Positions 1,691 through 54,924 of a stretch of DNA of 64,000 bases are shown here, piece by piece. A model generated the notes under the pieces. It had not been told where the DNA came from, made no database searches, and saw only the letters and a list, made by a program, of their open reading frames with translations. The stretch is from positions 11,658-75,657 of the forward strand of contig CAJBNH010000158.1 of assembly GCA_903955385.1 (NCBI GenBank). Direction: 5' to 3'. Source of the stretch: an uncultured Myxococcales bacterium. Its GTDB lineage: Bacteria > Myxococcota_A > UBA9042. Every line of letters starts with the position of its first letter. Within the stretch, counting starts at the first letter, position 1. Position numbers and translations under genes: made by a program.

Positions 1691-1781
1691 CGCGCGCCTT
1701 GTCCGAATTCGCCCTCCCTGTTAGAACCGAGTGCCGCGCAAGTGCGCGCCCTACCTGACGACCCTGCCACCGAGAATTGCC

Positions 1782-3404
1782 ATGCTCCACACCCCCGTGC
1801 GCTTGCTGTCCGTCCTGATCGCGCTTGCGGTCGCGCTACCTGTTCTGCAGGGCTGCGGCGAGCAGAAGAAGAAGTCCGAGATTCGCGCAGAGGAGGGAAC
1901 GGCCAACATCGCCGACCTGCTGGCCGCCCGCCGCGCGCGCATCGTCAAGCAGCTGCCGACATCGGACGATCCGGGCGACGAGGAGCATCCGTGGCTCGCG
2001 TGGATTAAGCGCTCGGTGACGACCACGCCGTCGAACGACCTGCGCAAGATCGCCATCAAGGCCAAGAAGACGGCGGCGGCCGACCAGGCTGAGACGCTGG
2101 CGAAGTACTTCGAGGCCCAGCGCGAGTACATGCTGAACGAGAAGATCGCGCCCAACGACTACATGCGCGAGATGGCCCCCGCCCGCCGCGACGCTCAGGG
2201 GCAGCCGTGGGCCGTGGACCTCGAGTTCGACGCGATCTTCTTCCACGCCGCCGAACAGGCCCGGACGTACACGCTGTTCGCCTGGGACCCGCACGACGAG
2301 CGCGTGATCCGCTTCTTCACCTACTGGAAGTACGTGTTCGACTTCGTGCCCCGGACCTCCATCTTCGAGGATGAGGTCAACCGCCTCTGCGATGAGAAGC
2401 TGAACGGCTACTGCAAGACCATCCCGATGGAGGAGCGTCCGTTCCAGGTGATGAGGCCGTACTACGAGGGCACGATTGCCAAGATCGCGGGCTACAAGGC
2501 GAAGTTCCCGAACAGCCCCTACAACCCGCTGCTGGACCGCATTGCCGCGCACTACAAGATCCGCATCGAGAAGGTGCCGAAGTTCGAAGAGTTCCCCGTG
2601 CTGCCGGCGATTCGCTCGACGATGGCCGCGCCGCTTGGCGGCAACGCCGTGATGTGGGTGACGGACCGCGGCATCACCTTGATGGACAACGAGCTGCGCA
2701 AGCCCGGCGTCGCCCCGGTGGTCGCGGACAAGCCCGCGGGCGCCCCGTGGAAGGCCGACTGGCTGCCCGACGAGGGCCTGGCAGCGCAGATTTCAGCGTT
2801 GGTGCAGGACGTTCGCAGCTCGACCATCTCGCAGTACAACCAGTCGCCCATCTTCATCGTCCCCGCTCCCGATGTGCCGGTCGGTTATCTGGAGCCCCTG
2901 CTGCGCGCTGCCGTCGTCGGTCCGAATGCCAAGGAGTGGCCGCAGCAGATTCTGGTCGGTCGCCGCCGCTCTGACGGCTCGAACCGGCGTGCTGGCTTCA
3001 CGATTTCTGTTCTGGCCGCAGACAAGGCTGTGCCGTTCAAGCTCAAGCCCATCGGGGCGAAGAAGGCGCTGACGTGCACGGCGTGGGCCGTGGTGGGCAA
3101 GGACCCGTTTGAGGCCAAGGGCTTCAAGCCGGTGGTCTGGCACGACGGCGACAAGGTCACGACTGCCCGCCTGGCCGATGACGGCACGTTGAACGATGCG
3201 CAGACCGCGCCCGGACACGGCGACGGCGACCGGCTCGAGACCTGGGCCGACCAGCAGACCGCCTCGATGGTCGTGGCCGTGTCTGCCAAGGCTGGCTATG
3301 CCAAGCTGCTCGAAGCGCTCAACGGCGTGGCGGTCAAGTGTGGCGAGGAAGAAGGCTGCCGGATCCCGCGCACGTCGCCGATCTTCATCGCGACCTGCCG
3401 TTGA
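1782..3404 (+). CDS. Lipoprotein, function unknown
   Basis: ATG 1782. MLHTPVRLLSVLIALAVALPVLQGCGEQ gives a signal peptide plus LQGC lipobox. 540 aa, no recognised catalytic motif. Confidence 0.5.
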   Translation: MLHTPVRLLSVLIALAVALPVLQGCGEQKKKSEIRAEEGTANIADLLAARRARIVKQLPTSDDPGDEEHPWLAWIKRSVTTTPSNDLRKIAIKAKKTAAADQAETLAKYFEAQREYMLNEKIAPNDYMREMAPARRDAQGQPWAVDLEFDAIFFHAAEQARTYTLFAWDPHDERVIRFFTYWKYVFDFVPRTSIFEDEVNRLCDEKLNGYCKTIPMEERPFQVMRPYYEGTIAKIAGYKAKFPNSPYNPLLDRIAAHYKIRIEKVPKFEEFPVLPAIRSTMAAPLGGNAVMWVTDRGITLMDNELRKPGVAPVVADKPAGAPWKADWLPDEGLAAQISALVQDVRSSTISQYNQSPIFIVPAPDVPVGYLEPLLRAAVVGPNAKEWPQQILVGRRRSDGSNRRAGFTISVLAADKAVPFKLKPIGAKKALTCTAWAVVGKDPFEAKGFKPVVWHDGDKVTTARLADDGTLNDAQTAPGHGDGDRLETWADQQTASMVVAVSAKAGYAKLLEALNGVAVKCGEEEGCRIPRTSPIFIATCR

Positions 3405-3555
3405 CCTCTGCGACTGCCGAATCGGCTCTCGCGACTGTCTGACGGGAACCTCGGCGCGGTGGCACCCTATCGACCGATAGTCGTGGTCCATACAGATCAA
3501 TGGCTTACGTGGACGGCGGGCGGGCGGGCGGCCTGGACGATCCACCCACCATTGA

Positions 3556-3662
3556 AAATGGCGGGCTATCAGTTGAGAAGCCCGCCTGCGCGGGCTACCT
3601 GGCCGCTGAGCCCACGAAGGTGGGCTTCCCATGTGATAGCCCGGGGTTTCTAACCCTGGGTG
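3556..3662. other. Structured element in a 372-nt non-coding gap between convergent genes (alternative hairpins GCGGGC/GCCCGC/GCGGGC, GAGCCCAC-GAAG-GTGGGCTT, GGGTT-TCT-AACCC)
   Basis: Read directly. The ORF-track ORFs in this gap have no protein-like composition. Confidence 0.25.
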
Positions 3663-3776
3663 GCACGATCCAGGCGAGTCGGGCAGTGCGGCGGATCGCG
3701 TCCGGTGAGCGCTTCGATAGGCTTGTTATCGAGAGGGTCTTCGCTCGCAGCCGGGGTTCCTGCCTGAGCTGCAGCG

Positions 3777-6677
3777 CTATTCCCCGTCCGCGCCGTCCTT
3801 GTCCGGGGCAGTGTCGGGCTTGGGCTTCTGCGTGTAGACGCAGGCGGGCGCGGGCGGTTGGGCCTTGCGGACCCACAACTCGATCTCTTGCGTCTTCCAG
3901 TGCTTCAGCGTGCGGTCGACGAAGACCTTGTCGCGCATGAAGTTATCGCGCTCGAAGGGGCGCTTGGCGACCGACTGCGGCGCGAAGTACGACATGGGTG
4001 CTGCCACGAAGAACTTCACGTGGTCGCTGCACACCTTGGTCCAGAACTCCTGCGGCGTGACCATGCCGGTGTTGAAGACCTTGGAGTTCGTGTCGACCTC
4101 GTTGCCCGCCAACCGACGTCCGGACAGCATCGCGATCAGCGGGGCGTAGTCGCTGGCCCCGGTAATCGTGTCTTGTTCCGTGGTGTTGGCGCGGACGTAG
4201 GCGGCCATCTCCTCTGCCGTCGACCACCAGCGCTTCTTGTTCCACAGGTAATGGTGCACGCCCGACTCGATGCTGCCTCGCAAGCGCACGCCCTGCCAGA
4301 ACAGCGCGTGGCTCAGCTCGTCGACCACGGCGGGACCCGGCGCCGGGCTCCACGGAAACTCGAGGCGCTCGCCCAAGCCCTTCGAGCTGGTCACTGCCTT
4401 GAATTCGCTGGGAAAGGCCTTGCGATTGGCGGCCATGTTGACGGGCACCCACGCCATCGTCAGCAGCACGGCCCCGACCGTCACCGCGACCCAGCCCCCA
4501 GTGGGCGCGAACGGGCGGGTCGGCTCCTGCCCAGCGGAAGTCGGCAGCGACTCGGCCAGCATCACGACCTTGACCAACCGCGCCACGGTGCCGATCCACG
4601 ATGCGGCCGCGATCGCCAGCGTCGGCATCAGCAGCGAGTAGTAGAAGTCGTAACGCTCCTTGAACTGTCCGAACTCCATGAGGAGCGCCAGCGTCACCGC
4701 CCAGATCAGCAGCGTGAAGCCACCGTCGGCCGGCTGGCGCCACCAAGCGCGCGGGTTCCACAACAGCTCCCAAGACGGCAGGGCAGCGGCGGTCCGGCGG
4801 GCGGCAGCGTCGGCAAGGGTGCGTACTTGCAGGACATGGTGCCGGGCGCGGTCGACGGCGATGGTCAGGACGACGCCCAACGGCGCGACAAGCGCCAGCC
4901 ACCAATGCGCGGCGTGGTAGTAGACGTTCTTGGTGAAGTCGCCGCTGTCTAGCAAGAGGAAGAAATTCGAGAGGATCGCAATGGGACCATCGCCGGGCGG
5001 CGTGAAGCCCGCAACCTTGGCCTTCTTGGCGAAGTGGTAGGTGTAGGCGCCCTGGATGTACGCGTCGCCCGCCAGCCACAGGAAGAACAGGTTCAGCGTG
5101 CCCCACACGGCCAGAAAGCCGAGGGTCAGGCGCACGCCGGGATGCCGCAGCAGGCGCCGCCACACGGGCTCACCCACCGTCGCGGCTGGGGGCAGCGGCA
5201 GGAAGGCCGCGAGCACGACCGTCGCCAGATAGCCGCCCACGCCGTAGAAGCCCGTCGAGGCTGCCGCACCCAACAGCAGACCACCCAACAGGAATCGCCG
5301 TGAGAACACCGCCCACAGGCCGGCCATCATCCACGCCGTCGTCAGGTTGATGCCGGTCAGGTTGGTCGAGGCCTGCAGCACCTCGCACGACGTCCAGTAC
5401 AGGGCCAGCGCCGCCAACCCCGGCCACACGCCGAGAAATCGCCTGGCCATGCGCCAGACGAACACGCCCGCAACCGTCGCAGCCGCGACCGACAGCCACT
5501 TGCCGACCAGGAAGCCCGAGCCGAGCACCAGGTACAACAGGGCCGGCACTGCGATGTGCAAGGGCGGGTGCGCGAAGAAGAAGTCGCGGTACGGCCACAG
5601 CCCTTCGGTCCAGGACCGGGCGGCATAGAAGTAGATGGCCTCGTCGGTGGTCGAGTAGCGAAGTCCGTTGGTCTTCAGAATCAGGAAAGCGGCAAGAAGC
5701 GCGGCGAACACAAGCACTTCGGCGTTTCTGGTGACGACGTGCAGCCCTCGCTCGCCCCACCGATGCAGCACCAACGCCAGGGCCACCGCGGCCAGTCCGG
5801 CCACTCCCGCGACGTGCAGCGCGACACCGGGTGCCGGATGCGACGCCACCAGCGGCCACGCGACCGGCAGCAGCAGCAGCGCCCCTGCCGCGCCCCATGC
5901 CAGCGACCGCGACAGCTCGCGCGAGGTCGCCAGCAGCACCAGCACTCCCGTCGCCAGTGCCGCGTGGGCCAGCGTCATCGTCGGACCGGCCAGCGCCGTC
6001 GTGACGAGCTTGCCTTGAGGTCCCACGGGTGCCAGCACGCCGGTCAGGGCGCCCCACACGGCCGGGGTCGAGCTGCCGACCCAACCGACCGGCAGGCAGG
6101 CGATCAGCCAAAGGCCAAACGTTCCGGCAGCAAAGACGGTGCGTGCTGACAGCGACGTGGGCGCGAGTCCCAGCGCAATTGCGCCAGCGGCAGAAATCGC
6201 TGCCAAGACAGCCGGTTGCATGCCGAATAGGGGTGTCTGCAGCGGCGCCGTCCACGTGTCCAGCCCCGACGTCGCGCCGCGCAGTCCAAGAGACAGCAGC
6301 GCAAGCGCCACCGACCCGACCAGCAGCGCATCGGCGAACTTGTCGTCCGGGCGTCGGGCAAGCCAGGTGCCTCCCACCGCAAGACCGATGGCGGCGAGCG
6401 TCGCAAGGGTCGTCAGCACCCGCACCGACGGGAAGACGGAGCCCGAGTCGGGCAGCGCGAGCGCCACCAACGCCAGCGCGGCCGCAGCCGCCAACGCCTG
6501 AAGCCAGCGCGGCGATACTGCGGCGGCAGGGGCAGGGACGTGGGGAGCGGGCTCTGCGGACCTGGCGTCGGCGGCAACTTCGGTTGCGGCAACCGGCAAC
6601 GCCGCCTGGTCCGAGTCGCGGGATTCCGCAGCAGGATGGGCTGCTTCGGGGACTCGGCTGCGGGTCTTTTTGGCCAT
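3777..6677 (-). CDS. GT-C fold membrane glycosyltransferase (PMT/ArnT-like, polyprenyl-phosphate-sugar dependent) with large C-terminal soluble domain
   Basis: 966 aa. More than 12 predicted TM helices after a low-complexity N-terminus. The TTDEAIYFYAARSW motif in the first loop resembles the DE motif of GT39/GT83 enzymes. ATG 6677 lies 3 nt after the meaB stop. Confidence 0.55.
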   Translation of the reverse strand: MAKKTRSRVPEAAHPAAESRDSDQAALPVAATEVAADARSAEPAPHVPAPAAAVSPRWLQALAAAAALALVALALPDSGSVFPSVRVLTTLATLAAIGLAVGGTWLARRPDDKFADALLVGSVALALLSLGLRGATSGLDTWTAPLQTPLFGMQPAVLAAISAAGAIALGLAPTSLSARTVFAAGTFGLWLIACLPVGWVGSSTPAVWGALTGVLAPVGPQGKLVTTALAGPTMTLAHAALATGVLVLLATSRELSRSLAWGAAGALLLLPVAWPLVASHPAPGVALHVAGVAGLAAVALALVLHRWGERGLHVVTRNAEVLVFAALLAAFLILKTNGLRYSTTDEAIYFYAARSWTEGLWPYRDFFFAHPPLHIAVPALLYLVLGSGFLVGKWLSVAAATVAGVFVWRMARRFLGVWPGLAALALYWTSCEVLQASTNLTGINLTTAWMMAGLWAVFSRRFLLGGLLLGAAASTGFYGVGGYLATVVLAAFLPLPPAATVGEPVWRRLLRHPGVRLTLGFLAVWGTLNLFFLWLAGDAYIQGAYTYHFAKKAKVAGFTPPGDGPIAILSNFFLLLDSGDFTKNVYYHAAHWWLALVAPLGVVLTIAVDRARHHVLQVRTLADAAARRTAAALPSWELLWNPRAWWRQPADGGFTLLIWAVTLALLMEFGQFKERYDFYYSLLMPTLAIAAASWIGTVARLVKVVMLAESLPTSAGQEPTRPFAPTGGWVAVTVGAVLLTMAWVPVNMAANRKAFPSEFKAVTSSKGLGERLEFPWSPAPGPAVVDELSHALFWQGVRLRGSIESGVHHYLWNKKRWWSTAEEMAAYVRANTTEQDTITGASDYAPLIAMLSGRRLAGNEVDTNSKVFNTGMVTPQEFWTKVCSDHVKFFVAAPMSYFAPQSVAKRPFERDNFMRDKVFVDRTLKHWKTQEIELWVRKAQPPAPACVYTQKPKPDTAPDKDGADGE

Positions 6678-6680
6678 GGG

Positions 6681-7655
6681 TCAGCTTCCGCGGGGTTCGG
6701 TGCCGGGCGGCCGCGCAATCGCCTGAAGCATCGCGCGGTCGGCGGCGGAGTAGGGGTCGCGCTTGCGGTCGGCGACTTCGGCGACGAGATCCCGGCCGTC
6801 GGCGGTGGCGGTCAGCCAGCGATGCGCCATGCGGGTACAGGTCTCGCGCACAAGGCCGGTGACGACGAAGGCGGCGCGGGCGCGTTCCCGCTCAGCGCGG
6901 CTGGGGCTGGAGGTCAGGAACTGGCCGTGGCGCAGGATTTCCTCGCCCAACAGGTCGATACCCTCACCCCGCGAGGCGATGGTGCGCACAATGGGCGGCA
7001 TCCACTCAGGCATCTCGGACAGCAGCATTTGCAAGCCGCGTAGATCACTGACCGTTCGGTCGGCGCCATCGGCATCGGCCTTGTTCACCACGAACACGTC
7101 GGCGATCTCGAGGATGCCCGCCTTGATCGCCTGAATGTCGTCGCCCATCCCCGGCACCATCACGACGACGGTGGTGTCGGCGGTGCGCACGATGTCGATC
7201 TCGTCCTGACCCACGCCCACAGTCTCGACCAGCACGACGTCGTAGCCCATCGCGTCCATCACGTGGACCATCTCACTGGTTGACCGCGACAGACCGCCCA
7301 GAGCGCCGCGGGTGGCGAGCGAGCGGATGAAGACGCCGGGGTCGGCTGCGTGCTCCATCATCCGGATGCGGTCGCCCAGGATGGCGCCGCCGGAGAAGGG
7401 GCTGGAAGGATCCACCGCCAGCACGCCGACTTTCAGACCTTGGCGGCGGTAGTGACCGACCAGCCGACTGCACAGCGTGGACTTGCCGGAGCCGGGGTTG
7501 CCGGTCAGACCGATGACGCGCGCGCGGCCGGTGTGGGGGTACAGCAGGCGCAGCACGTCGGTCGCGCCCGGCTCGCGGTCGTCGAGCATGCGCATCAGGC
7601 GGGCGCCCGCGCGAAGGTCTCCAGCGAGGATGGCAGCGGCAGCTTGCTCGCGCAT
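6681..7655 (-). CDS. meaB: G3E-family GTPase MeaB/ArgK (methylmalonyl-CoA mutase-associated metallochaperone)
   Basis: Walker A GLTGNPGSGKSTL and VDPSSPFSGGAILGDRIRM are MeaB signatures. The start overlaps the upstream gene's stop by 1 nt. Confidence 0.85.
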   Translation of the reverse strand: MREQAAAAILAGDLRAGARLMRMLDDREPGATDVLRLLYPHTGRARVIGLTGNPGSGKSTLCSRLVGHYRRQGLKVGVLAVDPSSPFSGGAILGDRIRMMEHAADPGVFIRSLATRGALGGLSRSTSEMVHVMDAMGYDVVLVETVGVGQDEIDIVRTADTTVVVMVPGMGDDIQAIKAGILEIADVFVVNKADADGADRTVSDLRGLQMLLSEMPEWMPPIVRTIASRGEGIDLLGEEILRHGQFLTSSPSRAERERARAAFVVTGLVRETCTRMAHRWLTATADGRDLVAEVADRKRDPYSAADRAMLQAIARPPGTEPRGS

Positions 7656-8524
7656 CAGAACTCGGCGCCGACCTTGACCGTGATCACGTTGAGCCCGTCG
7701 GTGAACGACCGCATGAACTCGGCGCCCAGCTGTGCGCGCATCACGACCGTGCGCAGACCCACCGCGGCGCGGTGTCCCAAGGCCTCAGAGACGTTGCCCC
7801 AGCTGCCAAATTCCTCCACGACGATCACGTCGGGGCGTACCGCATGCTCGTCGGCGAACGTCAGCAGTTGGTGGGTGCCGACGTAGGTATACGTCATCGA
7901 GTAGCCCAGCCACGGCTCCAGCGTCATGACGCCGGCGATGCCGAAAGACTTGGAAATTGCGACGTCGGCGCCCACGATGAACATGTCGACGTCCGAGTTG
8001 CCCAGCACGGTGTTGAGGCTGGCGCGCACGCCCAGATCGGGGATGTACTTGAAGCCGTCGATCAGCGACAGGCCCAGCTCAGCGCCAAAAGCCCACAGGT
8101 CCGAGTCGTTCAGATTCGTCAGCACCGTGCCGATTTGCGCTTGGTGGGGTAGGCCCTTGCGCACCCGCAGCTGTCCACTGGTGACCAGACTCTTGGGGGC
8201 GTCGGCGGCCTTCTGCCAGTACTCGGCTTTGTCGTGGATGCCAATCCAACTGCTCTCGAACGTGGCGCTGTAGCCCAAGGGGCCGCCTGACGCGCCGGGA
8301 CCCAACATGCGGGGCCCCAGGGCGAGTCCGATCTCGCGCATCAGGGAGTTGTAGCCTTCCTGCCGCACGGCTTGCAGCGCCGTCGTCTGGGTGCCCGCGA
8401 AGAATTTCTCCAGGTGCAAGTCCAGCGGTCCGGCGAACGCGGGCAGGGAAAGCCCCATCGTCGCAAGCACGAGCAGTGCGGTGACGAGGACCCGGACCAC
8501 CGATTGCCGCTGCGTTCCACCCAT
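7655..8524 (-). CDS. Putative outer-membrane beta-barrel protein
   Basis: Signal peptide MGGTQRQSVVRVLVTALLVLATMGLSLPAFA/GP. Alternating hydrophobic pattern. Terminal ...KVGAEF ends in the aromatic residue typical of OMP C-termini. Start chosen at the internal ATG (8524) rather than the ORF-track start 8593. Confidence 0.45.
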   Translation of the reverse strand: MGGTQRQSVVRVLVTALLVLATMGLSLPAFAGPLDLHLEKFFAGTQTTALQAVRQEGYNSLMREIGLALGPRMLGPGASGGPLGYSATFESSWIGIHDKAEYWQKAADAPKSLVTSGQLRVRKGLPHQAQIGTVLTNLNDSDLWAFGAELGLSLIDGFKYIPDLGVRASLNTVLGNSDVDMFIVGADVAISKSFGIAGVMTLEPWLGYSMTYTYVGTHQLLTFADEHAVRPDVIVVEEFGSWGNVSEALGHRAAVGLRTVVMRAQLGAEFMRSFTDGLNVITVKVGAEF

Positions 8525-8646
8525 GTGCCGTCTCCGCGCGCGATTGTCGCCGCTCTCCCGCCTGAATGCGGACCGTTGCGGCATTGTGGCCAAGCGTGGC
8601 CGCGATGTCCACAGACAGCCGATACCTGCAGATGGGCCTGTAGAGG

Positions 8647-10083
8647 TCAGCGCGTGGGCAGCCGCGCTCTCGCATTGGTCGCCGCCTCGTCCTTCATGCG
8701 CTGCCGCTCGACGGGATCCGCCCAGCGCGCCTGCACTTCCGGCGCCAGCGTCTCGACCGGGTCAAAGAAATAGAACAGGCGCTCGGGGTCGACGTTGGGG
8801 CTGCGGAACAGCGCGATGCCGTTGTGGCGGTCGTAGTACTCGAAGCTGTGCGCGTCGCGCTTGCCACCGCCGCCCAGCGTGTCGACGACGAAGGTCGGGG
8901 TGTTGAAGCCGGCGGTCGAGCCGCGGACCTCCTTTTCGATGTCGATGGCCGTCTGCAGGGTGGTGCGCAGGTCCTCGACACCCTTGACCAGATCGTGGAC
9001 GTAAACGTAGTAGGGGTGCACGCCGATGTGGCCCAAGCGCTTGACCAGCAGCTTCATCGACTCGGTGGTGTCGTTCACGCCCCGCTGCAGCACCGACTGG
9101 TTGCGCACGAACACGCCCTTTTCCAGCAACTTGCCGATCGCCTCGCGCGTGATCCAGGTGATCTCGTTGGCGTGGTTGAAGTGCGTGTGCAGCACCACGT
9201 CCTTGCGACGGGCGCGGCCGAATTCCACCACGTCGACCAAGGCTTGCGTCCACTCGGTGTCGGTCAGCAGCTTCTGCGGCATCACCGCGGGGCCCTTGGT
9301 GGCGTAGCGCAGGCGCTTGACGTTGGGCAGGTCAAGCAACCGCTCGCCGATCAAGCGGATGTGCTTGGCGGGCAGGTTGTAGACGTCGCCACCCGACAGC
9401 ACGATGTCCTCGAGCTCGGGGCGGCTGGCGATGTAGGCGAAGATGCGCTCCCACCGCGCGGCATCGGCGTTGAGGTGCACCTTGTCGACCATCCCCGTGT
9501 CGAGTCCGACCGCGTAAGAGCGCGTGCAGAAACGGCAATAGACGGGGCAGGTATCCAGCGCCAGAAACAGCGCCTTGTCGGGATAGCGGTGGGTCAGTCC
9601 CGGCACCGGCGAGTCGTCCTGCTCGTGCAGGCTGTCGAGCGTCAGCTCCGGATGGTCGGGCAGCAGGCGTGACGCCAGCGGGATGAACTGCCGACGCAGC
9701 GGGTCCTCGTAGGGCCGCGTCCAGTCGATCAGGCTCATCAGATAGGGGGAAACCCGCACGCTCATGGGCGAATTGGCGAACCCGGCCTCAGCGTCGGCGA
9801 TGAACTCCGCGGGGGCAATGCCCTGAATGGCCTCGAGCAGCTTGTCGATGCGCGTGATCGAGTTGCGGCCCTGCCAGCGAAAGTCCAGGAACGTCGCCTC
9901 GTCCACGTCGCGCCAGGCCGGCAGCGTCTGCCAAAACGCGCCTTCGCGCAGATTGCCGTGCGCCATCGAGCTGGCGGCAGCGGTCGGCCTCACGCGGGCG
10001 GGAGCGGCGATGGAGAGCGTCGGGCCGGACACGTGTCCTCCGATCTGGGTCGCAGCTGCGACGGGTGCGTCGTTCGTGTTCAT
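8647..10083 (-). CDS. KamA-family radical SAM 2,3-aminomutase (lysine/glutamate 2,3-aminomutase-like)
   Basis: LHEQDDSPVPGLTHRYPD and CPVYCRFCTRS (CxxxCxxC) match the lysine 2,3-aminomutase core. A GGGGK motif is present. The C-terminal Zn-Cys cluster of clostridial KamA is absent. Start at the internal ATG 10083. Confidence 0.8.
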   Translation of the reverse strand: MNTNDAPVAAATQIGGHVSGPTLSIAAPARVRPTAAASSMAHGNLREGAFWQTLPAWRDVDEATFLDFRWQGRNSITRIDKLLEAIQGIAPAEFIADAEAGFANSPMSVRVSPYLMSLIDWTRPYEDPLRRQFIPLASRLLPDHPELTLDSLHEQDDSPVPGLTHRYPDKALFLALDTCPVYCRFCTRSYAVGLDTGMVDKVHLNADAARWERIFAYIASRPELEDIVLSGGDVYNLPAKHIRLIGERLLDLPNVKRLRYATKGPAVMPQKLLTDTEWTQALVDVVEFGRARRKDVVLHTHFNHANEITWITREAIGKLLEKGVFVRNQSVLQRGVNDTTESMKLLVKRLGHIGVHPYYVYVHDLVKGVEDLRTTLQTAIDIEKEVRGSTAGFNTPTFVVDTLGGGGKRDAHSFEYYDRHNGIALFRSPNVDPERLFYFFDPVETLAPEVQARWADPVERQRMKDEAATNARARLPTR

Positions 10084-10166
10084 GGAGAGAAGACCTCGCG
10101 AACCCTGGATTTGCTGCGGCCTGGGGGCGGGGGGAGGCATGGCCCGGGCCGGTCCGAGGGAGGTCG

Positions 10167-11414
10167 CTAGGGTACCACGCCGGGGCGGACACCGTCGAGC
10201 AGGCGAGCTCCCAGGTCGCACAGCTCGGCCAGCGTGTGCACGTCGCCCTCGCGCTCGGCGGCGACCGCACAGAAGCCGTGTGGCTCGGAAAGCCTTTGCA
10301 GTGCAACGATGTGCGCTTCGTCAGCCTGGCTTAGATGGTGCAAGCCAGCGGCGGCCTGGTCGAGGCGTCGGCTCATCGCGTCCGCGCTTGCTTCGTCCAT
10401 CCCCGATCGCTGCAGTCGGCCGCGCAGGTCGCCCAACGCAACCTCTCGCCCAGCGCCACCGCCGAAGCCGTCGGGAACCTGCAGCACGCGGTTGACGACA
10501 AATCCGGCGAACGGCAGTCCTTGGCTGCGCAGCTCGGCCTGCAAGTGCCTGGCCTCGCGCAGCGCGGTCGCTCCCGGGGTTGTGACCAGCAGAAATCGCG
10601 TGCCGGGCGAGCGCAGCATCCGGTCAGTCTCTCGGGCGCGCTCGGCCATCTTGGGCATGACATCGCGAAACGACACGAAGAACTGGGCGATGTCCGGCAG
10701 GGTCTCGCCGCCGACCAGCCGACCCATCACGGCCATCGCCATCGAACCGCCGGCCCCCAGCAGCGAGAACTTCTTCTTCTCACCCGGCTGCGGCACCCGC
10801 GAGAACCAGCGCAGGACCCGCTCGTTGATGAAGGCCGACAACGTGCCGCCCGCGTGCAGGAAGTCGACGGCGTTCTGCATCGGTGGCGTGTCCAGCACCA
10901 GCAGGTCGTAGCGGTCTTCAGCCAGCAGCGAGGCGATCAGCTCGAGGGCCACGTAGTCCGGCGACGACGACAGCATCGGCAACAGCGCGCGGTACACCCG
11001 ATTGCCCATCACCTGATCGCGCAGTGAGGGGTCGGGCAGCAGGCGCTCGACCATCAGCTCGGCCCCCGACTCGGCGTCCAGCATCATCGCGTGCAGCGTA
11101 CCGGCGGGAGGATCCTGACCGAGATCGGTCAGTTGGCGCGTCAGGCGCGGCAGGATCTCCAAGGGTGTGTTGGCCGGCACCGCCTCGCCCAGCAGTCCCA
11201 ACGCCTGCAGCAGCCGTTGCGCCGGGTCGATGGTCAGCACCAGCACCCGCCGTCCCATGCACGCCGCGGTCAGCGCCAGTGCCGCCGCCGTCGTGGTCTT
11301 GCCCACGCCACCGCTGCCCGCCAGCACCAGCAGCTTGGTCTGACGCAGCACGTCGGCCAGGGGACCTGGACTGCGCGTGGTTTCGCAAGTCGTGACAGGG
11401 CCTGGGAAGGTCAC
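10167..11414 (-). CDS. ArsA/Get3-family P-loop ATPase (second of tandem pair)
   Basis: LLVLAGSGGVGKTTTAAALA deviant Walker A, followed by LVLTIDPAQ. GTG 11414 overlaps the TGA of the upstream paralog (GTGA). Confidence 0.7.
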   Translation of the reverse strand: MTFPGPVTTCETTRSPGPLADVLRQTKLLVLAGSGGVGKTTTAAALALTAACMGRRVLVLTIDPAQRLLQALGLLGEAVPANTPLEILPRLTRQLTDLGQDPPAGTLHAMMLDAESGAELMVERLLPDPSLRDQVMGNRVYRALLPMLSSSPDYVALELIASLLAEDRYDLLVLDTPPMQNAVDFLHAGGTLSAFINERVLRWFSRVPQPGEKKKFSLLGAGGSMAMAVMGRLVGGETLPDIAQFFVSFRDVMPKMAERARETDRMLRSPGTRFLLVTTPGATALREARHLQAELRSQGLPFAGFVVNRVLQVPDGFGGGAGREVALGDLRGRLQRSGMDEASADAMSRRLDQAAAGLHHLSQADEAHIVALQRLSEPHGFCAVAAEREGDVHTLAELCDLGARLLDGVRPGVVP

Positions 11415-12481
11415 GCGGCGCCCCTGAGCGCGGGGGCCAGCCGTCGGGCCAGCAAGTCGATGGCGTCCAGCGGCAGCTCGCGGCGGAACAGGAAGGGCAG
11501 CTCGAGGACCGGGCGGCCGGTGCGCCGCAGCTCGGGCAGGAAACCTCGCGACTTCCGGTGCCGCTCGCCCAGCAAGCGCGCGGCCCAAAGCCAGCGGTCG
11601 TCCGTCGCCCCAGTCTCGCCAGTCTCCAGCGCGTGCGAAAGCGCGTCGAGTTCGGCAGGATCCAGCAATTCCGGGTACATACCATTCATCACGAACGCGG
11701 CGGCGCGCAAGCCGAAGCGGGACTGCAGGGTGTGGTGCAGCTCCAGCGTCTCGACGACAGGCATCTCCTCGGGTCGCGTCACCAGCATAAGCCCGGTGCG
11801 CTGGCCGTCCGAGAGCAGCTGCTGCATCCCCTCGGCATACGCGGCAACGGGTCCGAACGGCAGCATCTGCGTCAATGCCTTGGGGATCGCGCACATGCCG
11901 ACGACGAAGCCGCTGGTGGGCAGGTCGCACACGATCAGGTCCCAGGTGCGGTCGCCCGACTGACCCTGCTCCGCCTCAAGGCGCCACAGGCGATACAGGA
12001 ACAGAATCGAGCGGATGGCCGGCATCGCCTGAAAGAAGCCCTCGACCGCCTTGTTGCGCAGGGCCAGCTGGACGAGTGCGGGAATGCGGAGCTGTTGCAG
12101 GAAGAACGCGCGCAACGCCTCGTGGGCGTCGATGCGCGCGACCGACAGGTTCGGAGCGACCGAGACGGGCTGTGGACCCAAGGTCTCGAGACCGAACAGC
12201 GGCGCGGCACGAGAGACGGGCTCGACCTCCAGCAGCAAGACACGCTTGCCGGCGTCTGCAGCGGCCCTGGCCAGCGCGAGCGCGACGGTAGACTTGCCCA
12301 CGCCACCCTTGCCGGTAACGAGAAGGACTGAGCGATCCAGAAGCTGCGGAGCTTGCGATAGGTCGGCGGCCCGAGTCGGGTTCAGATGGTCATGGGGTGA
12401 AGGCATTGCCGCAACAGGATAGTCCGCACGCGTCGCCCTCACAACGTCGGCCTGGGTCGCGACGCGGCCTCGATCGGTCAT
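11411..12481 (-). CDS. ArsA/Get3-family P-loop ATPase (first of tandem pair)
   Basis: VLLVTGKGGVGKSTVALALA Walker A. ATG 12481 overlaps the TGA of the upstream membrane protein (ATGA). Confidence 0.7.
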   Translation of the reverse strand: MTDRGRVATQADVVRATRADYPVAAMPSPHDHLNPTRAADLSQAPQLLDRSVLLVTGKGGVGKSTVALALARAAADAGKRVLLLEVEPVSRAAPLFGLETLGPQPVSVAPNLSVARIDAHEALRAFFLQQLRIPALVQLALRNKAVEGFFQAMPAIRSILFLYRLWRLEAEQGQSGDRTWDLIVCDLPTSGFVVGMCAIPKALTQMLPFGPVAAYAEGMQQLLSDGQRTGLMLVTRPEEMPVVETLELHHTLQSRFGLRAAAFVMNGMYPELLDPAELDALSHALETGETGATDDRWLWAARLLGERHRKSRGFLPELRRTGRPVLELPFLFRRELPLDAIDLLARRLAPALRGAA

Positions 12482-13332
12482 CTTCCTTGCTGTGCAGGCA
12501 GTTGTGTTGTGTCGTCGCGGGCGGGCAGCCGGCAATGGCCGTGGTCGTGCAGCCGGCACACCAGCATCGTGGCGCTCACGACCAGAAACGGCACCGTCAG
12601 CGGCACCCAGACGAGCCACTGCGCCGCGAAACCGAAGCCCAGCCAGACCGCGGTCCGGCGCCGCAGTAACGCCAACTGGGCAGCAAGGGGCACGCGGTTG
12701 TTCTCTAGCGCGAATCCAGACATCGTCGCGCCCAGGGCCAGAGCCCCCCAGCCGCCCCCGACCGCGATCGTGAACAGGGCGCCCAGCGGCGCGAAGGCCA
12801 GCGTCAGCACCATACCGACCGCCCAGAGGGCCACGCCGCCGGTCACCTCGATCGCCAGCAGCGCGAGTCCGCGGCCGATGCCTCGCAGCGTCTCGACGGC
12901 AAATGCCCCCCACGTCTGCCCCGGCACCTGCGCGCCGTACCAGCGCTGCTCGACCCGCTCGGCAAGCCAGGCGAACGCGGGCGACAGCACCGGCAGGGCC
13001 ACGGTCGCTGCGAGCACCAACGACGCCAGCCACAGCGCCGCGTACAGCAGCACTCGGCCCACATGCCACAGCGCCACCGCCCACCACGACTCGGGGGCGG
13101 GACCCATCACGGCCGCGACCGCCACGCCGTCCCAAGTCGCGGCGAGCCACAGGAAGGCGACCCAGACCGCCAGGTAGAGCGCCATCGCCAGAGCGGCGAC
13201 CGACAGCAAGTCGCCGTGGCGCAAGGTGAAGCCAAAGCCGGCCCCCGCCGCGCGAAAGCCCGTCCAGGCCTGGTGCAGGGGTGTGCCGGCAAGTGGGTCG
13301 GGACTGCGGGGCGGCGGCGCGGACACAGGCAA
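12478..13332 (-). CDS. Integral membrane protein, EI24/CysZ-like
   Basis: 284 aa with about 6 TM helices rich in W/A/L, matching the overall pattern of the EI24/CysZ family. The family call is tentative. Confidence 0.4.
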   Translation of the reverse strand: MPVSAPPPRSPDPLAGTPLHQAWTGFRAAGAGFGFTLRHGDLLSVAALAMALYLAVWVAFLWLAATWDGVAVAAVMGPAPESWWAVALWHVGRVLLYAALWLASLVLAATVALPVLSPAFAWLAERVEQRWYGAQVPGQTWGAFAVETLRGIGRGLALLAIEVTGGVALWAVGMVLTLAFAPLGALFTIAVGGGWGALALGATMSGFALENNRVPLAAQLALLRRRTAVWLGFGFAAQWLVWVPLTVPFLVVSATMLVCRLHDHGHCRLPARDDTTQLPAQQGR

Positions 13333-13344
13333 CCTCTGGGTGGG

Positions 13345-14031
13345 TCAGGGTGCGAGAGGGAATTCGTGGTCACAAGTCGGGTCATCGCAGGCGCGGGTGA
13401 GCAGCATGCCCTGACGGGCGGACCCCAGCAGCGGCAGGTCCCACGAGCTGTCGCCCAGGGCAAGATCCGCAGGCGGCAGGCCGAGTTGAGTCCAAGCGTC
13501 GACCTTTCCCTGACCAATTGGCACCGGTTCCGCAAAGCGCGCCGGGTCCACGCCCAGACAGTTCACCGCGATCAGGCTGCAGCCCTCGAGCCCGAACAAT
13601 CGCGCGCCCACCTCGACGACCGGCCGCGGCGAGGCCGACACCAGCCACACCTGGACGCCGCGCTGCATCGCCTCGCGCAGCGCCCGCACCAGCCAGCGTC
13701 GGGGCCGCACCCGCTCGCGCAGCGCTGCCTCGACGGGACCCCGCGCGTCGTGGACGTCCACCCGCGCCATCAGCTCGGCCGCGAACCGGCAGCCGCTTGG
13801 ATAGTCCGTGTCCATCTGCCCCATGTACCACGCGAAGTCCGCCTGACCCGGCAGCCATGGCGTGTGGGGCGGCGTCGCGGCAAGCAGGACCACTTCGTCG
13901 CCCACGTCGCCGGCCCACACCGTGTTGTCGGCATCGGTGGCCACGCGCGACCCGCGGGGCAGGGCGGCAAGGGCCTGCACCACCTGGGACGGCGTGGGGT
14001 AACGGAGGATCGACACCTGGGTTTCGTCCAT
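13345..14031 (-). CDS. HAD-superfamily hydrolase (HAD-IB-like)
   Basis: VATDADNTVW matches the DxDxT/V HAD motif I. Lies 12 nt upstream of the membrane-protein gene and is the first gene of the minus-strand operon. Confidence 0.55.
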   Translation of the reverse strand: MDETQVSILRYPTPSQVVQALAALPRGSRVATDADNTVWAGDVGDEVVLLAATPPHTPWLPGQADFAWYMGQMDTDYPSGCRFAAELMARVDVHDARGPVEAALRERVRPRRWLVRALREAMQRGVQVWLVSASPRPVVEVGARLFGLEGCSLIAVNCLGVDPARFAEPVPIGQGKVDAWTQLGLPPADLALGDSSWDLPLLGSARQGMLLTRACDDPTCDHEFPLAP

Positions 14032-14238
14032 GGGGCCTCGGGCGGGGGGCCGGCGAGCGGCGAGGTCGAACGAGCATCGTGCCAGAGGTCCGTCGGGCTG
14101 TCAGCGCCCCGCGCGACCGGCAACTGTCGGGCGGCGGAATGATCGTGTAGGATGCGCTGTTCGCAGCACGTCCAAGTCCGTGCAGCAGGTTGCGTCCGGC
14201 GGTGGACGTCCCAAGCGACCCCCCGGGCAAGAGGTTTC

Positions 14239-15339
14239 ATGGCAGAAGGTCCGATGAGCGTTGGAGGTCAGGCGATCCTCGAGGGCGTCATGATGCGGTC
14301 GCCCCATTCCTTGGCGATCGCCGTACGGCGTGCCAGTGGCGAGATCGTGGTCAAGGAGGCGGCGTGGCACTCGATCTGGGAGAAGGCGCGCTGGCTGCGT
14401 AAGCCCTTCCTGCGCGGCGCCGTCGTGCTGTTCGAGTCGCTGCACAACGGCATCAGTGCGCTGACGTTCAGTGCCAACGAGGCCGCGCGCGAGCTTCCGG
14501 TCGAGGGTGCCGAAGGCAAGCCGGCGGACGCCAAGCCCCCGACCGACAGTGGCGCGTCCAACCTTGCGATTGCGGGCACCATTGCGCTGTCAGTCGCGTT
14601 CGGCTTCGGCATGTTCGCGGCGCTGCCGCACTTCATCACCTGGCTCGCAGGCGTCATGTTGGGCAGTGAGTCGCTTGCGTCCGGCAAGGACTTCGGCTTC
14701 CAGATCGTCGATGGCATCGTCAAGATCGTGTTTCTGGTCGGGTACATGGCGCTGATATCTCGGATGAAGGACATCAAGCGCGTCTTCCAGTACCACGGAG
14801 CCGAGCACAAGAGCATCTACTGCTACGAGGCCGGCCTGCCCTTGACCGTCGCCAATGCCCGCACCTTCTCGCGTCAGCACCCGCGTTGCGGCACCAGCTT
14901 TCTGCTGATCACGGTCGTGGTCTCCATCCTCTTGTTTTCCGTGGTGTTCCCGTTCCTGCCTCGGATCTCGTCGACCGGGTGGCTGAATCAGCTGGCCTAC
15001 GTCTTCATCAAGATCCCCCTGATGTTTCCGGTTGCAGGCATCGCCTACGAGGCTACCCGGCTGTCGGCCCGACATCCTCGCAACCTGTTCGTCCGCGGCT
15101 TTACGTGGCCGGGCCTGATGTTGCAGAACATCACCACCCAAGAGCCGGACGACACCCAGCTCGAGATTGCCCTTGTCGCCCTGCAGAAGACGCTATGGCG
15201 CGAGGCGCAGCTGCAGCAGAACGCTGCCGCCGGCTTGCCTGTGGGCGACGCCGAGCCCTTGGTCTTCCCGACCTACGATGCGTTCGTGTCCAGCATTGCC
15301 ACGTTGCCGCCGCCGCCGGTCGACACCTTGGCGGCCTGA
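14239..15339 (+). CDS. DUF1385-family protein (YqhQ-like)
   Basis: MAEGPMSVGGQAILEGVMMRSP... matches the characteristic DUF1385 N-terminus, followed by TM segments. RBS GAGGT 4 nt upstream. Immediately precedes prfA. Confidence 0.6.
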   Translation: MAEGPMSVGGQAILEGVMMRSPHSLAIAVRRASGEIVVKEAAWHSIWEKARWLRKPFLRGAVVLFESLHNGISALTFSANEAARELPVEGAEGKPADAKPPTDSGASNLAIAGTIALSVAFGFGMFAALPHFITWLAGVMLGSESLASGKDFGFQIVDGIVKIVFLVGYMALISRMKDIKRVFQYHGAEHKSIYCYEAGLPLTVANARTFSRQHPRCGTSFLLITVVVSILLFSVVFPFLPRISSTGWLNQLAYVFIKIPLMFPVAGIAYEATRLSARHPRNLFVRGFTWPGLMLQNITTQEPDDTQLEIALVALQKTLWREAQLQQNAAAGLPVGDAEPLVFPTYDAFVSSIATLPPPPVDTLAA

Positions 15340-22709: not shown

Positions 22710-23450
22710 TCAAGGCGTATCTTGCCGCTCTGACTTCAGCCGACCCTTGGCCAGCCGCAGCTTCAGCACGTTCTTCATCGCCTCGGTGAAGATGCTTCCG
22801 CTCATCTTGGACTCGCCGCGGGTGCGATCGGGGAACTGGATCGGCACCTCGCCGATGCGGAACCCCAGTAGCAGCGAGCGATACGTCAGCTCGACCTGAA
22901 ACACGTAGCCGTTGCTCAGGATTTGGTCCAGCGGCAGCGTCTGCAGCACCTTGCGATGGAAGCACTTGAAGCCGCCGGTCAGGTCCTTGAAGGGAAGCCC
23001 AAGGATCGCCCGCGCATAGGTATTGCCACCCTTGGAGATGAAACGCCGCTTCCAGCCCCAGTCCTGCGTGCTGCCGCCGGGGATGTAGCGTGACCCCAGC
23101 ACTACGTCGCAAGTCTCTGCCCTGGCGAGGAATTCCGGCAGGTGCTCCGGTCGGTGCGAGAAGTCGCAGTCCATCTCGAAGACGAGCTCGTAGTCCCGCT
23201 GCAGCGCCCACTTGAACCCGGCGACGTACGCGCGCCCCAGCCCCTGCTTCTTCTCGCGGTGCATCACGAACACCCGCGGGTCCTTGGCCGCGATCTCGTC
23301 CGCCAGCTGACCGGTGCCGTCGGGACTGTTGTCGTCGATGACGAGGATGTGCAGCTCCGGTACCACGGCGTGAACCGCCTGCACCATCAGGGGCAGGTTG
23401 TCGCGCTCGTTGTAGGTCGGCAGGCAGATGACGGCGGTGGGGTGAGGCAT
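22710..23450 (-). CDS. GT2 polyprenol-phosphate sugar synthase (dolichol-phosphate mannosyltransferase-like)
   Basis: ICLPTYNERDNL, VIDDNSPDGT and the DxD-type motif of the Dpm1/Ppm1/ArnC family, 246 aa. The start overlaps the fadD-like stop by 1 nt. Confidence 0.8.
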   Translation of the reverse strand: MPHPTAVICLPTYNERDNLPLMVQAVHAVVPELHILVIDDNSPDGTGQLADEIAAKDPRVFVMHREKKQGLGRAYVAGFKWALQRDYELVFEMDCDFSHRPEHLPEFLARAETCDVVLGSRYIPGGSTQDWGWKRRFISKGGNTYARAILGLPFKDLTGGFKCFHRKVLQTLPLDQILSNGYVFQVELTYRSLLLGFRIGEVPIQFPDRTRGESKMSGSIFTEAMKNVLKLRLAKGRLKSERQDTP

Positions 23451-34092: not shown

Positions 34093-35406
34093 ATGCGCGA
34101 CCCCCATGCCCTCGTTCCCCCCTTCGACCCCAGTTTGGCGGACCCTGCTGACACGCCGGTCGAGCTTGCCCTTGCAGCCCTGCGCGTGGGGCGAATCGTC
34201 GCCCTGGTCGAGGATCTGGCCGGCGGATCGTCGGTCTTCGCGGTGCTCGCGGCACAGCACGCAAGTGGTGATGCCGTCAACGAGCTTGCACACCATGCCC
34301 GCGGCGTGATCGCCGTGACGATGACCGAGGCGCGCGCTCAGGCGCTGGGGTGTCCGGCGCTGGAACGCAGGCGTGCGGCGGTGACCACGCCCCGCTATGG
34401 CGTCAGTGTCGAGGCGGCGCGCGGCGTTTCGACCGGCATCTCGGTCGCCGACCGTTCGCAGACCATCGTCGCGGTTGCCGATCCCCACACCACGCTGGAC
34501 GACTTCGTGCGTCCCGGGCACATCATGCCCAGCATCGTGGGCGTTCTGGGTTCGTTCGAACGGCCCTATGGCAGCGACGCCGCGCACGACCTCGTCGTCA
34601 TGGCCGGTTTGCAGCCTGCCGCGGCGCTGTCGCACGTGGTCGACGGACTGGACCCGCTGCAACCCGAGGATGTGGAGGTGTTTGCCGAACAGCGGGGATG
34701 GCCGGTGGTTCGCGTCAGCGACGTGCTGGCCTACCGCGCCGCCCACGAGCGGTTGGTACACGTAGTGTCCGACGGCATGGTCGAGACCAGCGACGGTCCC
34801 TTCCGCATCCGCATCTACGAAAACGACATCGACGGCACCAGTCACATTGCCTTGACGCGCGAGGGACTGGCCGAGGATCCCGAGGCGCTGCCCTTGGTTC
34901 GCCTGCACAGCCAGTGCCTGACGGGTGACATCCTGCACTCGCAACGCTGCGACTGTGGCGACCAGCTGCACGAAGCGATGCGGCGGGTGGCACGGGCGGG
35001 GTACGGCGCGGTGGTGTACCTGCGGCAGGAAGGGCGGGGCATCGGCCTGATCCAGAAGATCCGCGCCTATGCCTTGCAGGATCAGGGTGCCGACACGGTC
35101 GAGGCCAACCTGCGGCTGGGCTTTGCTCCCGACGAGCGCGACTACGCCGTGGCGGCGCAAATTCTCCGCGATGTGGGCATGGCCCGCATCGGCCTGCTGA
35201 CGAACAACCCGGCCAAGGTCTGGGCGTTGCAGCGGCTGGGCATCGAGGTCGCCGAACGCGTCGCGATCGAGATCGCCCCCACCCGCGACAACGTGCGGTA
35301 TTTGCAGACCAAACGTGATCGCATGGGGCATTGGCTGGAAGGGTTGGACGACGACCCCACCGGCGTGGTGCGCGTGCATGTGCCCGAGGGCGGAGGCCAC
35401 CCGTGA
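34093..35406 (+). CDS. ribA: GTP cyclohydrolase II with N-terminal degenerate DHBP-synthase-like domain (RibBA-type)
   Basis: The C-terminal half carries the zinc-binding motif [18 protein letters not shown] and RQEGRGIGL. The N-terminal half aligns to RibB but lacks the RENEGD catalytic motif. RBS AACGGAG. Internal ATG chosen because the long ORF-track start is antisense to yebC. Confidence 0.75.
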
Positions 35407-36746: not shown

Positions 36747-36836
36747 CCTTCCCGCCGTGATTGTCGAAAGTGCTTGCCCCGTTGCGTGCCGCCACTCGAC
36801 TTGCGCGTACGCCTTGAACGGTTCCGGAGGCTCCCG

Positions 36837-54455: not shown

Positions 54456-54468
54456 CGTGAGGGGAACC

Positions 54469-54924
54469 ATGACGATGCAGGACAACGCAGAGAAGACCGC
54501 CCGTCGAGGTCGCGTGCTGGTGGGCAAGGTCGGGCTGGACGGCCACGACCGCGGCGCCAAGGTCGTCGCGCGCGCGCTGCGGGACGCCGGATTCGAGGTC
54601 ATCTACACGGGGCTGCATCAGACGCCCGAGATGCTGGTGTCGGCGGCAGTGCAGGAAGACGTCGACATCATTGGGATCTCGATCCTTTCCGGCGCCCACA
54701 ACACGCTGGTGCCGCGGGTGCTGCAGCTGCTGAGCGATCGCAACGCCTCGGACATCTCGGTGTTCGTGGGCGGCATCATCCCCGAGGCCGACATCGGTCC
54801 GCTGATGCAGAAGGGCGTGGCGGCGGTGTTCACGCCCGGTGCGACGCTGCAGTCGATCTCGGCGCAGGTGCGCGAGGTGCTGGAGAAGAAGGGCGTGACG
54901 CTTCTGGGCGCCACCGCCGGCTGA
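54469..54924 (+). CDS. Stand-alone cobalamin-binding domain protein (methylmalonyl/isobutyryl-CoA mutase small-subunit-like)
   Basis: [16 protein letters not shown] carries the DxHxxG B12-binding motif. About 150 aa Rossmann-like. The start is 14 nt after the ACAD stop. Confidence 0.75.

Follow-up and report, generated by a model that had tools for sequence, protein, structure and literature searches.

The 64-kb window analysed here (64,000 nucleotides, positions 11,658 to 75,657 of contig CAJBNH010000158.1, assembly GCA_903955385.1) is high-GC DNA (GC about 0.65-0.72) from an uncultured Myxococcota source. It contains a row of eight head-to-tail open reading frames (ORFs) on the minus strand between positions 3777 and 14031. 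The row consists of three modules: a HAD hydrolase, an EI24-type membrane protein and two ArsA/Get3-like ATPases (module 1, HAD-EI24-ArsA1-ArsA2); a KamA-family aminomutase (module 2); and a secreted protein, a MeaB GTPase and a GT-C glycosyltransferase (module 3), with MeaB-GT-C as its older core. All eight genes are new and diverged representatives of families already known, and the row as a whole is a mosaic specific to its lineage. We read it, with a probability of roughly 0.6, as a lineage-specific juxtaposition of three separately inherited and separately functioning units, possibly co-transcribed. A preliminary description of the same DNA had proposed one cell-envelope modification system that uses a beta-amino acid. 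From the upstream to the downstream end of the row, the ORFs are:

13345..14031, minus strand: HAD-IB family hydrolase, 228 amino acids (aa), first gene of module 1 (PF12710)
12478..13332, minus strand: CysZ/EI24-family inner-membrane protein (EI24), 284 aa, module 1 (PF07264)
11411..12481, minus strand: ArsA/Get3-like ATPase 1 (ArsA1), BagA-like, module 1; 331 aa with the more likely start at ATG 12406, 356 aa if ATG 12481 is used
10167..11414, minus strand: ArsA/Get3-like ATPase 2 (ArsA2), BagB-like, 415 aa, module 1; GTGA overlap with ArsA1
8647..10083, minus strand: KamA-family radical S-adenosylmethionine (SAM) and pyridoxal phosphate (PLP) aminomutase, lysine type, 478 aa, module 2 (TIGR00238)
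7655..8524, minus strand: secreted protein of an uncharacterised family, 289 aa, possible small outer-membrane beta-barrel, first gene of module 3 (signal peptide)
6681..7655, minus strand: MeaB-family G3E GTPase, 324 aa, module 3 (TIGR00750)
3777..6677, minus strand: GT-C-fold membrane glycosyltransferase, ArnT/PMT-like, 966 aa, module 3 (AlphaFold2 model and Foldseek)

All eight ORFs lie where the preliminary description had placed them, and their GC content at third codon positions (GC3) is of coding type in 8/8 cases (0.85-0.88). The tight spacing described earlier is likewise present, although the upper bound of its 0-84 nt range is probably too low, with 122 nt as the likely largest spacer. 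Three of the four junctions said to overlap or nearly so are solid: the GTGA overlap of ArsA1 and ArsA2, the TGATG overlap (1 nt) of the secreted protein and MeaB, and the 3 nt between MeaB and GT-C. The fourth, an ATGA overlap of EI24 and ArsA1, exists only with the most upstream ArsA1 start (ATG 12481); since ArsA1 homologues comprise 329-332 aa, ATG 12406 is favoured, leaving a 71-nt gap after EI24 and making the overlap doubtful. HAD and EI24 are separated by 12 nt, and ArsA2 and KamA by 83 nt. The spacer between KamA and the secreted protein measures 122 nt (ATG 8524) or 53 nt (TTG 8593). ATG 8524 is the most likely start, because it yields a normal signal peptide and is aligned with 13 homologues, and the spacer is then 122 nt. 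The two largest spacers of the row (83 and 122 nt) thus stand on both sides of KamA. Promoter and terminator scans found no terminator-like site in any spacer of the row and a single promoter match in 3400-14400, at a module boundary:

8583..8611, minus strand: weak sigma-70-like promoter match, in the KamA/secreted-protein spacer

One match compares with 0.6 expected from shuffled sequence and is not significant.

Distribution of the three modules

About 170 related loci were examined, with KamA, GT-C and ArsA2 as seeds. Two contigs, L006 ('Myxococcota bacterium Deming_bin.407', 99%) and L007 (98%), are nearly identical to the window. The records of L007 and L009 are titled 'uncultured Enterobacteriaceae bacterium' and 'Klebsiella pneumoniae'; with a GC content of 57-67% and Myxococcota genes and synteny, these labels are probably wrong. 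The full row is confined to one family-level clade of lake Myxococcota. The KamA seed scan (one genome per GTDB species) returned 80 loci, which were then searched by tblastn with all eight proteins and the flanking DUF1385 protein. Other genes of the row accompany KamA only where KamA identity is at least 77%, i.e. in L001/L002, L006-L012, L020 and L089. These loci belong to lake-water Myxococcales metagenome-assembled genomes (MAGs); among them GT-C identity has dropped to 45-55% and that of the secreted protein to about 46%. The flanks of the row are syntenic in this clade too: one side has DUF1385, prfA and relA with a small ORF between the last two, the other a 557-aa protein and a TPR protein. 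As the flanking housekeeping genes are also conserved, the conservation reflects general synteny of the neighbourhood and is not specific to the cluster. The gene order is kept in close relatives, so that the loss of order named by the preliminary description as a refutation is not seen within the clade. Each of the three modules is also found alone. Co-occurrence of the full gene set beyond background synteny was not found in independent lineages.

Module 1 stands by itself in L173, a Myxococcales MAG, with the rest of the row not within 9 kb. Its identities to the window proteins are 58% (HAD), 52% (EI24), 57% (ArsA1) and 61% (ArsA2, the closest non-self tier), and it is flanked by a fatty-acid desaturase and unrelated genes. 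The HAD gene is first in the HAD-EI24-ArsA-ArsA unit of L007, L095, L138, L169, L170 and L173, all of which possess the EI24 gene. EI24 is absent from the sub-clade L001, L008, L009, L020 and L089, so it is not strictly required in cis. The ArsA pair also occurs by itself at 38-41% identity, always as a small and a large gene with a 4-nt overlap, near gyrB/fabH/gyrA or near ftsZ. Module 3 by itself is present in L092 and L094 (MeaB 74-75%, GT-C 48-54% identity), which are as near to the window as members of the clade; there it is preceded by a giant cysteine-rich protein. Modules 1 and 3 without KamA, in the same gene order and between the same prfA/relA/exbBD flanks, are found in L095, L138, L169 and L170; L169 and L170 have ArsA2 at 53-54% identity and the relA/exbBD-tonB/prfA context of the window clade. 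Because these four loci keep the other seven genes without KamA, the remaining genes do not need KamA at the locus. The combinations seen are each module alone, 1+3, 1+2+3 and 1 (minus EI24)+2+3.

Around 75 KamA orthologues (at most 67% identity) have none of the other seven genes within 10 kb, with one weak exception in L028, where an EI24-like match of 28% identity lies about 8 kb away on the opposite strand. The hosts of stand-alone KamA are other Myxococcota, Eremiobacterota/Vulcanimicrobiota, Verrucomicrobiota and Nostoc. Neighbour clustering reveals one recurrent companion, a 362-aa protein encoded directly upstream in about 19 loci, which passes the equivalog model of Kdd (L-erythro-3,5-diaminohexanoate dehydrogenase; NF052381, 251 bits, cut-off 200). 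Kdd is a lysine-fermentation enzyme. With kdd as the sole conserved partner of KamA, the one visible functional association of the family is catabolic. The loci with kdd-KamA are L019, L026, L033, L035, L038, L039, L041-L045, L051, L052, L054, L057, L071, L078, L081 and L083; they belong to Eremiobacterota/Vulcanimicrobiota-type MAGs, often have an Lrp/AsnC-like regulator upstream and look like compact lysine-degradation loci.

Protein families of the row

Seven of the eight family names given by the preliminary description stand, by Pfam and NCBIfam scores and, for GT-C, by AlphaFold and Foldseek; the outer-membrane beta-barrel is only plausible.

KamA scores 236.7 bits with TIGR00238 (cut-off 199.2) and stays below all narrower equivalogs (AblA 253 vs 525, Arg 209 vs 600, Glu 191 vs 650, EpmB 166 vs 369). 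Its CPVYCRFC sequence is a CxxxCxxC radical-SAM motif that aligns in HMMER with C125/C129/C132 of the Clostridium subterminale lysine 2,3-aminomutase (2A5H). Counted from the same alignment, R134, D293, D330 and K337 of 2A5H are kept as well; we take K337 to bind PLP, and R134, D293 and D330 to hold the lysine substrate. With the iron-sulfur motif, the PLP lysine and the lysine-holding residues all retained, the protein is, judged by its active site, most likely a genuine lysine 2,3-aminomutase. It differs from the C. subterminale enzyme, with which it has the cluster motif, the PLP lysine and the three substrate residues in common, in forming a distinct subfamily with a 55-residue N-terminal extension. 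The Eremiobacterota-type orthologues adjoin kdd, a gene of the lysine-fermentation pathway (kamA-kamDE-kdd-kce-kal); in the window kdd, kamDE and ablB were not found. The ORF scan, which took in the window except for some small ORFs and the stretches 32.0-33.0, 33.8-35.3 and 61.4-62.6 kb, detected no kdd, kamDE, AblB-type acetyltransferase, EpmA or mutase large subunit. Enzymes that attach beta-lysine (GNAT/AblB, EpmA/PoxA-like, ATP-grasp, MprF) were likewise found neither in the cluster nor in the scanned parts of the window. Module 2 would make beta-lysine for cytoplasmic lysine metabolism. Beta-lysylation of elongation factor P was considered and rejected (EpmB 166 vs cut-off 369, no epmA among the ORFs scanned), as was horizontal transfer of KamA, whose GC3 of 0.88 resembles that of its neighbours and whose nearest outside relatives are other Myxococcota. 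One KamA homologue of 743 aa (P0087, 66% identity) bears extra TENA/THI-4 and haem-oxygenase-like domains (PF03070, PF14518, PF11251).

The GT-C protein possesses a clade-specific N-terminal multi-helix extension (about residues 1-330), the GT-C core and a conserved C-terminal periplasmic domain. Its Pfam PMT_2 score of 24.3 bits lies just under the cut-off of 26.1, and several homologues bear a precomputed PF13231 hit. The alignment-based AlphaFold model (predicted local distance difference test, pLDDT, 88.1; predicted template modelling score, pTM, 0.89) is matched best in Foldseek by ArnT (5F15, E 4.5e-8, probability 1.0) and further by STT3, ALG9, PIG-M, Pmt4 and PglB; these model comparisons confirm the predicted GT-C fold, with ArnT closest. 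In the 'TTDE' sequence D345 is invariant and E346 is present in at least 90% of 22 sequences; C883 and C946 are also invariant. With ArnT and PMT (GT83/GT39) the protein shares the fold; its conserved Asp-Glu pair just ahead of the core may correspond to the PMT 'DE' motif. It differs in its low sequence identity to ArnT (14%), in the added N-terminal helix block of about 330 residues, and in a C-terminal domain of its own kind, conserved and bearing the two invariant cysteines. No arn genes were found near the window GT-C gene. The indexed search yields a small family of 40 proteins, and an alignment-based metagenome scan reached homologues down to 24-36% identity.

MeaB is located immediately upstream of GT-C on the same strand in 25 of 48 lineages, obtained by collapsing GT-C matches with enough upstream sequence at 70% identity and not phylogenetically independent. 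These MeaB-GT-C lineages span a GC content of 0.47-0.73, with a spacing mostly of -20 to +20 nt. In L086 and L087 ('Myxococcota JABWCM01' bin) the pair stands alone with a 4-nt overlap. Where GT-C lacks MeaB, its usual place is after rpsP-rimM-trmD-rplS-rnhB(-yraN) and before a DUF2400 gene, which hints at a core envelope function of the family in the rplS-rnhB-linked lineages. Such distant homologues occur in L110-L118, L126, L128, L130, L131, L135 and L150, and their DUF2400 gene is TIGR02757-like. The GT-C enzyme would take its sugar from a polyprenyl-phosphate donor and pass it to an acceptor in the periplasm; the secreted protein encoded beside it may be its target or its partner. A 246-aa GT2 glycosyltransferase (22710-23450, minus strand), abutting an AMP-binding enzyme (23450-25297, minus strand), lies 9 kb from the cluster. 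GT2 enzymes of about 246 aa include polyprenyl-phosphate sugar synthases, and this one could supply the GT-C donor.

The secreted protein begins with a signal peptide and ends with an invariant Phe. It has no transmembrane helix past the signal peptide, and its alternating hydrophobicity is weak (z about 1.9). Around 500 related representative clusters form its family. The protein has no Pfam, NCBIfam or PDB match, and profile searches of the family against PDB and Pfam, ten distant representatives included, gave nothing significant. The best profile match, to TonB-receptor barrel strands, is marginal (E 0.71), and the single-sequence structure model is unusable (pLDDT 36). By these features an outer-membrane beta-barrel is plausible. 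Throughout the close clades the gene lies ahead of MeaB-GT-C, even where module 1 is missing (L092 and L094).

MeaB scores 344.9 bits with TIGR00750, well beyond the equivalog cut-off of 240.75. Its motifs are the P-loop GNPGSGKST, NKAD, and D/Q/K at the switch-III positions; P-loop, NKxD and the equivalents of D182/Q185/K188 are kept in 40/40 readable GT-C-linked MeaBs. We take D182, Q185 and K188 of M. extorquens MeaB to be the switch-III residues that signal to methylmalonyl-CoA mutase. To our knowledge, MeaB-type G3E GTPases are known so far only as chaperones of B12-dependent mutases, and a candidate client is encoded in the window:

54457..54924, plus strand: methylmalonyl-CoA-mutase-type B12-binding small subunit, 155 aa (PF02310, TIGR00640)

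This subunit (PF02310 94 bits; TIGR00640 166.9 bits vs cut-off 57.45) sits 47 kb from the window MeaB gene and is 68% identical to its orthologue in L086, L087, L101, L103, L106, L140 and L152. In these seven distant loci the orthologue lies 2-4 kb downstream of MeaB-GT-C, within the same dehydrogenase cluster. The preliminary description had counted a metallochaperone usually dedicated to B12 mutases among the unusual members of the row; with the B12-binding subunit in the window and close to MeaB-GT-C in seven distant loci, MeaB is less out of place than it seems. The subunit is the likely client, and the simplest reading of the motifs is an ordinary, canonical MeaB, which would serve as the GTPase chaperone of a split B12-dependent acyl-CoA mutase. 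The likeness to MeaB/MMAA extends over the equivalog score and the P-loop, NKxD and switch-III residues. A mutase B12 subunit is encoded in the window and near the gene in relatives, but the window gene does not stand beside a mutase gene and is coupled, apparently translationally, to the GT-C gene. The mutase large subunit was not found among the window ORFs scanned. The B12-binding subunit is enclosed by an acyl-CoA dehydrogenase (ACAD) cluster with three ACAD genes (52002-56074, plus strand), near which the large subunit is missing as well; the order ACAD/B12-binding/ACAD recurs in L086 and L087 beside enoyl-CoA hydratase and thiolase genes. MeaB of the KamA-less seven-gene clade (L095, L138, L169, L170) is only 42-49% identical to window MeaB, and MeaB near remoter GT-C genes (30-39% identity; L086, L101, L120, L149) is 59-63% identical. 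This suggests accelerated evolution or paralogue replacement in the KamA-less clade.

In module 1, HAD scores 49.5 bits with PF12710 (cut-off 27) and carries the DxDxT motif as 'DADNT', and EI24 scores 44.1 bits with PF07264 (cut-off 32). ArsA1 and ArsA2 match ArsA_ATPase (PF02374) with 83 and 68 bits. The best NCBIfam models are BagA for ArsA1 (NF053622, 106.7 bits, cut-off 400) and BagB for ArsA2 (NF053621, 227.6 bits, cut-off 521), and the best PDB matches are the corresponding chains of 6BS3 (6BS3_A, Rv3679, E 4.4e-23; 6BS3_B, Rv3680, E 1.1e-45). With scores this far under the equivalog cut-offs the two proteins are homologues, not equivalogs, of BagA and BagB. The M. tuberculosis genes for BagA/BagB (Rv3679/Rv3680, 6BS3) likewise adjoin, the smaller one first, and the stop of one overlaps the start of the next. 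Each window ATPase matches best its corresponding Bag subunit in PDB and NCBIfam. The Walker A motif is GKGGVGKST in ArsA1 and GSGGVGKTT in ArsA2, so that the deviant-Walker-A signature Lys is missing from the second subunit, as in the mycobacterial pair. The window pair has HAD and CysZ/EI24 genes in front, a possible difference from the mycobacterial locus. BagAB, whose own substrate is unknown, has been tied to glycerol and nitric oxide tolerance, as cited in PMC10597346.

The module also resembles the ArsA-ArsB arsenite pump, in that an ArsA-class ATPase gene stands beside one for a polytopic inner-membrane protein whose family (CysZ/EI24) is one of anion transporters. The pump, however, has a fused double-domain ArsA, while the window has two separate half-size ATPases, which score 65 and 49 bits with TIGR04291 (cut-off 650), and the membrane partner of the window is dispensable in one sub-clade. 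No arsB, acr3, arsD or arsR was found in the scanned regions of the window. Arsenic resistance was rejected on these grounds, i.e. the lack of ars genes and scores far under the cut-off. With Get3/TRC40 the pair shares the ATPase superfamily and fold class, and Get3-like proteins have been reported from Myxococcales (PMC6593721). Both ATPases fall below the Get3 subfamily model (TIGR00345, 81.7 and 69.8 bits vs cut-off 135), and the window system differs in having no recognisable Get1/Get2-type receptor. A literature search found no paper that connects CysZ/EI24 with ArsA/Get3. A BagAB-like asymmetric ATPase heterodimer would work together with the EI24-type protein at the inner membrane, either in ATP-driven transport of small molecules or anions, as ArsA/ArsB does, or in Get3-like handling of membrane proteins, and the HAD phosphatase would act on a related substrate.

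Alternative readings of the row

Several observations weigh against three separately functioning units. Modules 1 and 3 adjoin in two diverged clades (GT-C 38-49% identity), where a real functional link is possible. KamA kept its position throughout a clade whose GT-C fell to 45-55% identity; the data are compatible both with its gain in one clade and with its loss in the other. The tight spacing within the row and the lack of any terminator-like site would allow one long transcript. A role of MeaB as B12 chaperone only leaves its tight coupling to GT-C in half of the lineages unexplained, and this persistent MeaB-GT-C transcription-unit coupling is the one unexplained feature of the row.

The single pathway of the preliminary description, in which a beta-amino acid made by KamA modifies the envelope by means of GT-C, the ArsA ATPases and an outer-membrane protein, is very improbable. 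One strand, tight spacing and the retention of KamA at its position throughout one clade agree with it, and the lysine-type active site makes beta-lysine a plausible product. However, KamA is the least stably attached gene of the row: it is absent from the otherwise identical cluster of L095, L138, L169 and L170 and unlinked to other row genes in about 75 other loci; in those loci that show a conserved partner, this is the catabolic kdd, and the conservation of the row is general synteny. No beta-lysine ligase or transferase was found in the cluster or the scanned window parts. The groups that GT-C enzymes transfer from lipid carriers are sugars rather than amino acids. With nothing in the row that ligates or transfers beta-lysine, and a GT-C enzyme that moves sugars, an enzymatic route to a beta-amino-acid modification of the envelope is lacking. 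A second alternative takes the seven other genes as one envelope-biogenesis system, with KamA as a passenger. The BagAB-like ATPase and EI24 would then deliver or energise a membrane protein (e.g. GT-C) or a lipid-linked or anionic substrate, HAD would dephosphorylate a carrier or precursor, and GT-C would glycosylate a periplasmic target, with the secreted protein as target or outer-membrane partner. Membrane and secreted proteins make up four of the seven products, and the seven-gene order with small spacers is the same in two diverged clades, the window clade and L095, L138, L169 and L170. This system is nonetheless doubtful: both of its halves occur alone in equally close relatives (L173; L092 and L094), the shared flanks imply that both clades received the entire region by descent, so that the co-occurrence amounts to roughly one evolutionary event, and elsewhere the ArsA pair is found with replication and division genes and GT-C after rplS-rnhB and before DUF2400.

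Another possibility concerns module 3 only, with MeaB not, or not only, a chaperone of a B12 mutase, acting instead as a dedicated GTPase partner of GT-C that would gate its assembly, cofactor or metal loading, or activity. In the 25 of 48 GT-C lineages with MeaB directly upstream on the same strand the two genes mostly overlap by 4, 14 or 20 nt or are at most 20 nt apart; the pair remains constant while all other neighbours change, and it is kept even in the window lineage, where 47 kb now separate it from the B12-binding gene. Against this stand the mutase-signalling switch-III residues and equivalog-level scores of the linked MeaBs, the mutase B12 subunit 2-4 kb away in seven loci, and the 23 of 48 lineages without adjacent MeaB; moreover, the pairing is mostly found in high-GC, probably related lineages and may stem from one ancestral juxtaposition. 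We regard this partnership as unlikely, and give an equally low chance to its wider form, in which MeaB is the dedicated cytoplasmic partner of the ArnT-like GT-C and, secondarily, the BagAB-type ATPases with EI24 and HAD form a four-gene membrane module. A juxtaposition of three separately inherited units accounts best for the distribution described above; within it, MeaB and GT-C would be carried as a long-conserved two-gene transcription unit.

Other genes of the window and significance

Convergent with the GT-C gene, a 557-aa protein without Pfam or NCBIfam match is encoded at 1731-3404 (plus strand). It occupies the same place (51-54% identity) in L008, L010, L011 and L020, is rearranged in L009 and is absent from L001/L002. 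Further from the row, 35331-38520 (plus strand) contains consecutive genes for an amine-oxidase-like flavoprotein, a GT2 glycosyltransferase and a polysaccharide deacetylase, which may be a set for hopanoid or glycolipid modification. A 1034-aa protein at 40673-43777 (minus strand) combines a DUF748-like N-terminal region with a C-terminal transglycosylase domain. At 56290-58164 (plus strand) a 624-aa protein unites serine hydroxymethyltransferase-like and class II aldolase domains, an unusual fusion; it is followed by a PALP-family enzyme (58118-59083, plus strand) and, farther on, by a GGGtGRT-family protein (60423-61424, plus strand).

A beta-amino-acid envelope pathway would have been a new kind of system, and the evidence against it spares follow-up effort. 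The association of MeaB with GT-C is undescribed, no paper that links MeaB with glycosyltransferases having been found in the literature searched, and the GT-C clade and the secreted-protein family are both uncharacterised. The pair represents either two unrelated genes kept in one transcription unit or a pointer to a role of G3E GTPases outside B12 metabolism; in the latter case, the partnership would define a new client class for these GTPases. HAD, CysZ/EI24 and the BagAB-like pair form a likewise undescribed four-gene association, which offers a testable idea of a partner for the stress-tolerance ATPase of M. tuberculosis. If such a membrane module is real, it would provide a first handle on the substrate of mycobacterial BagAB.

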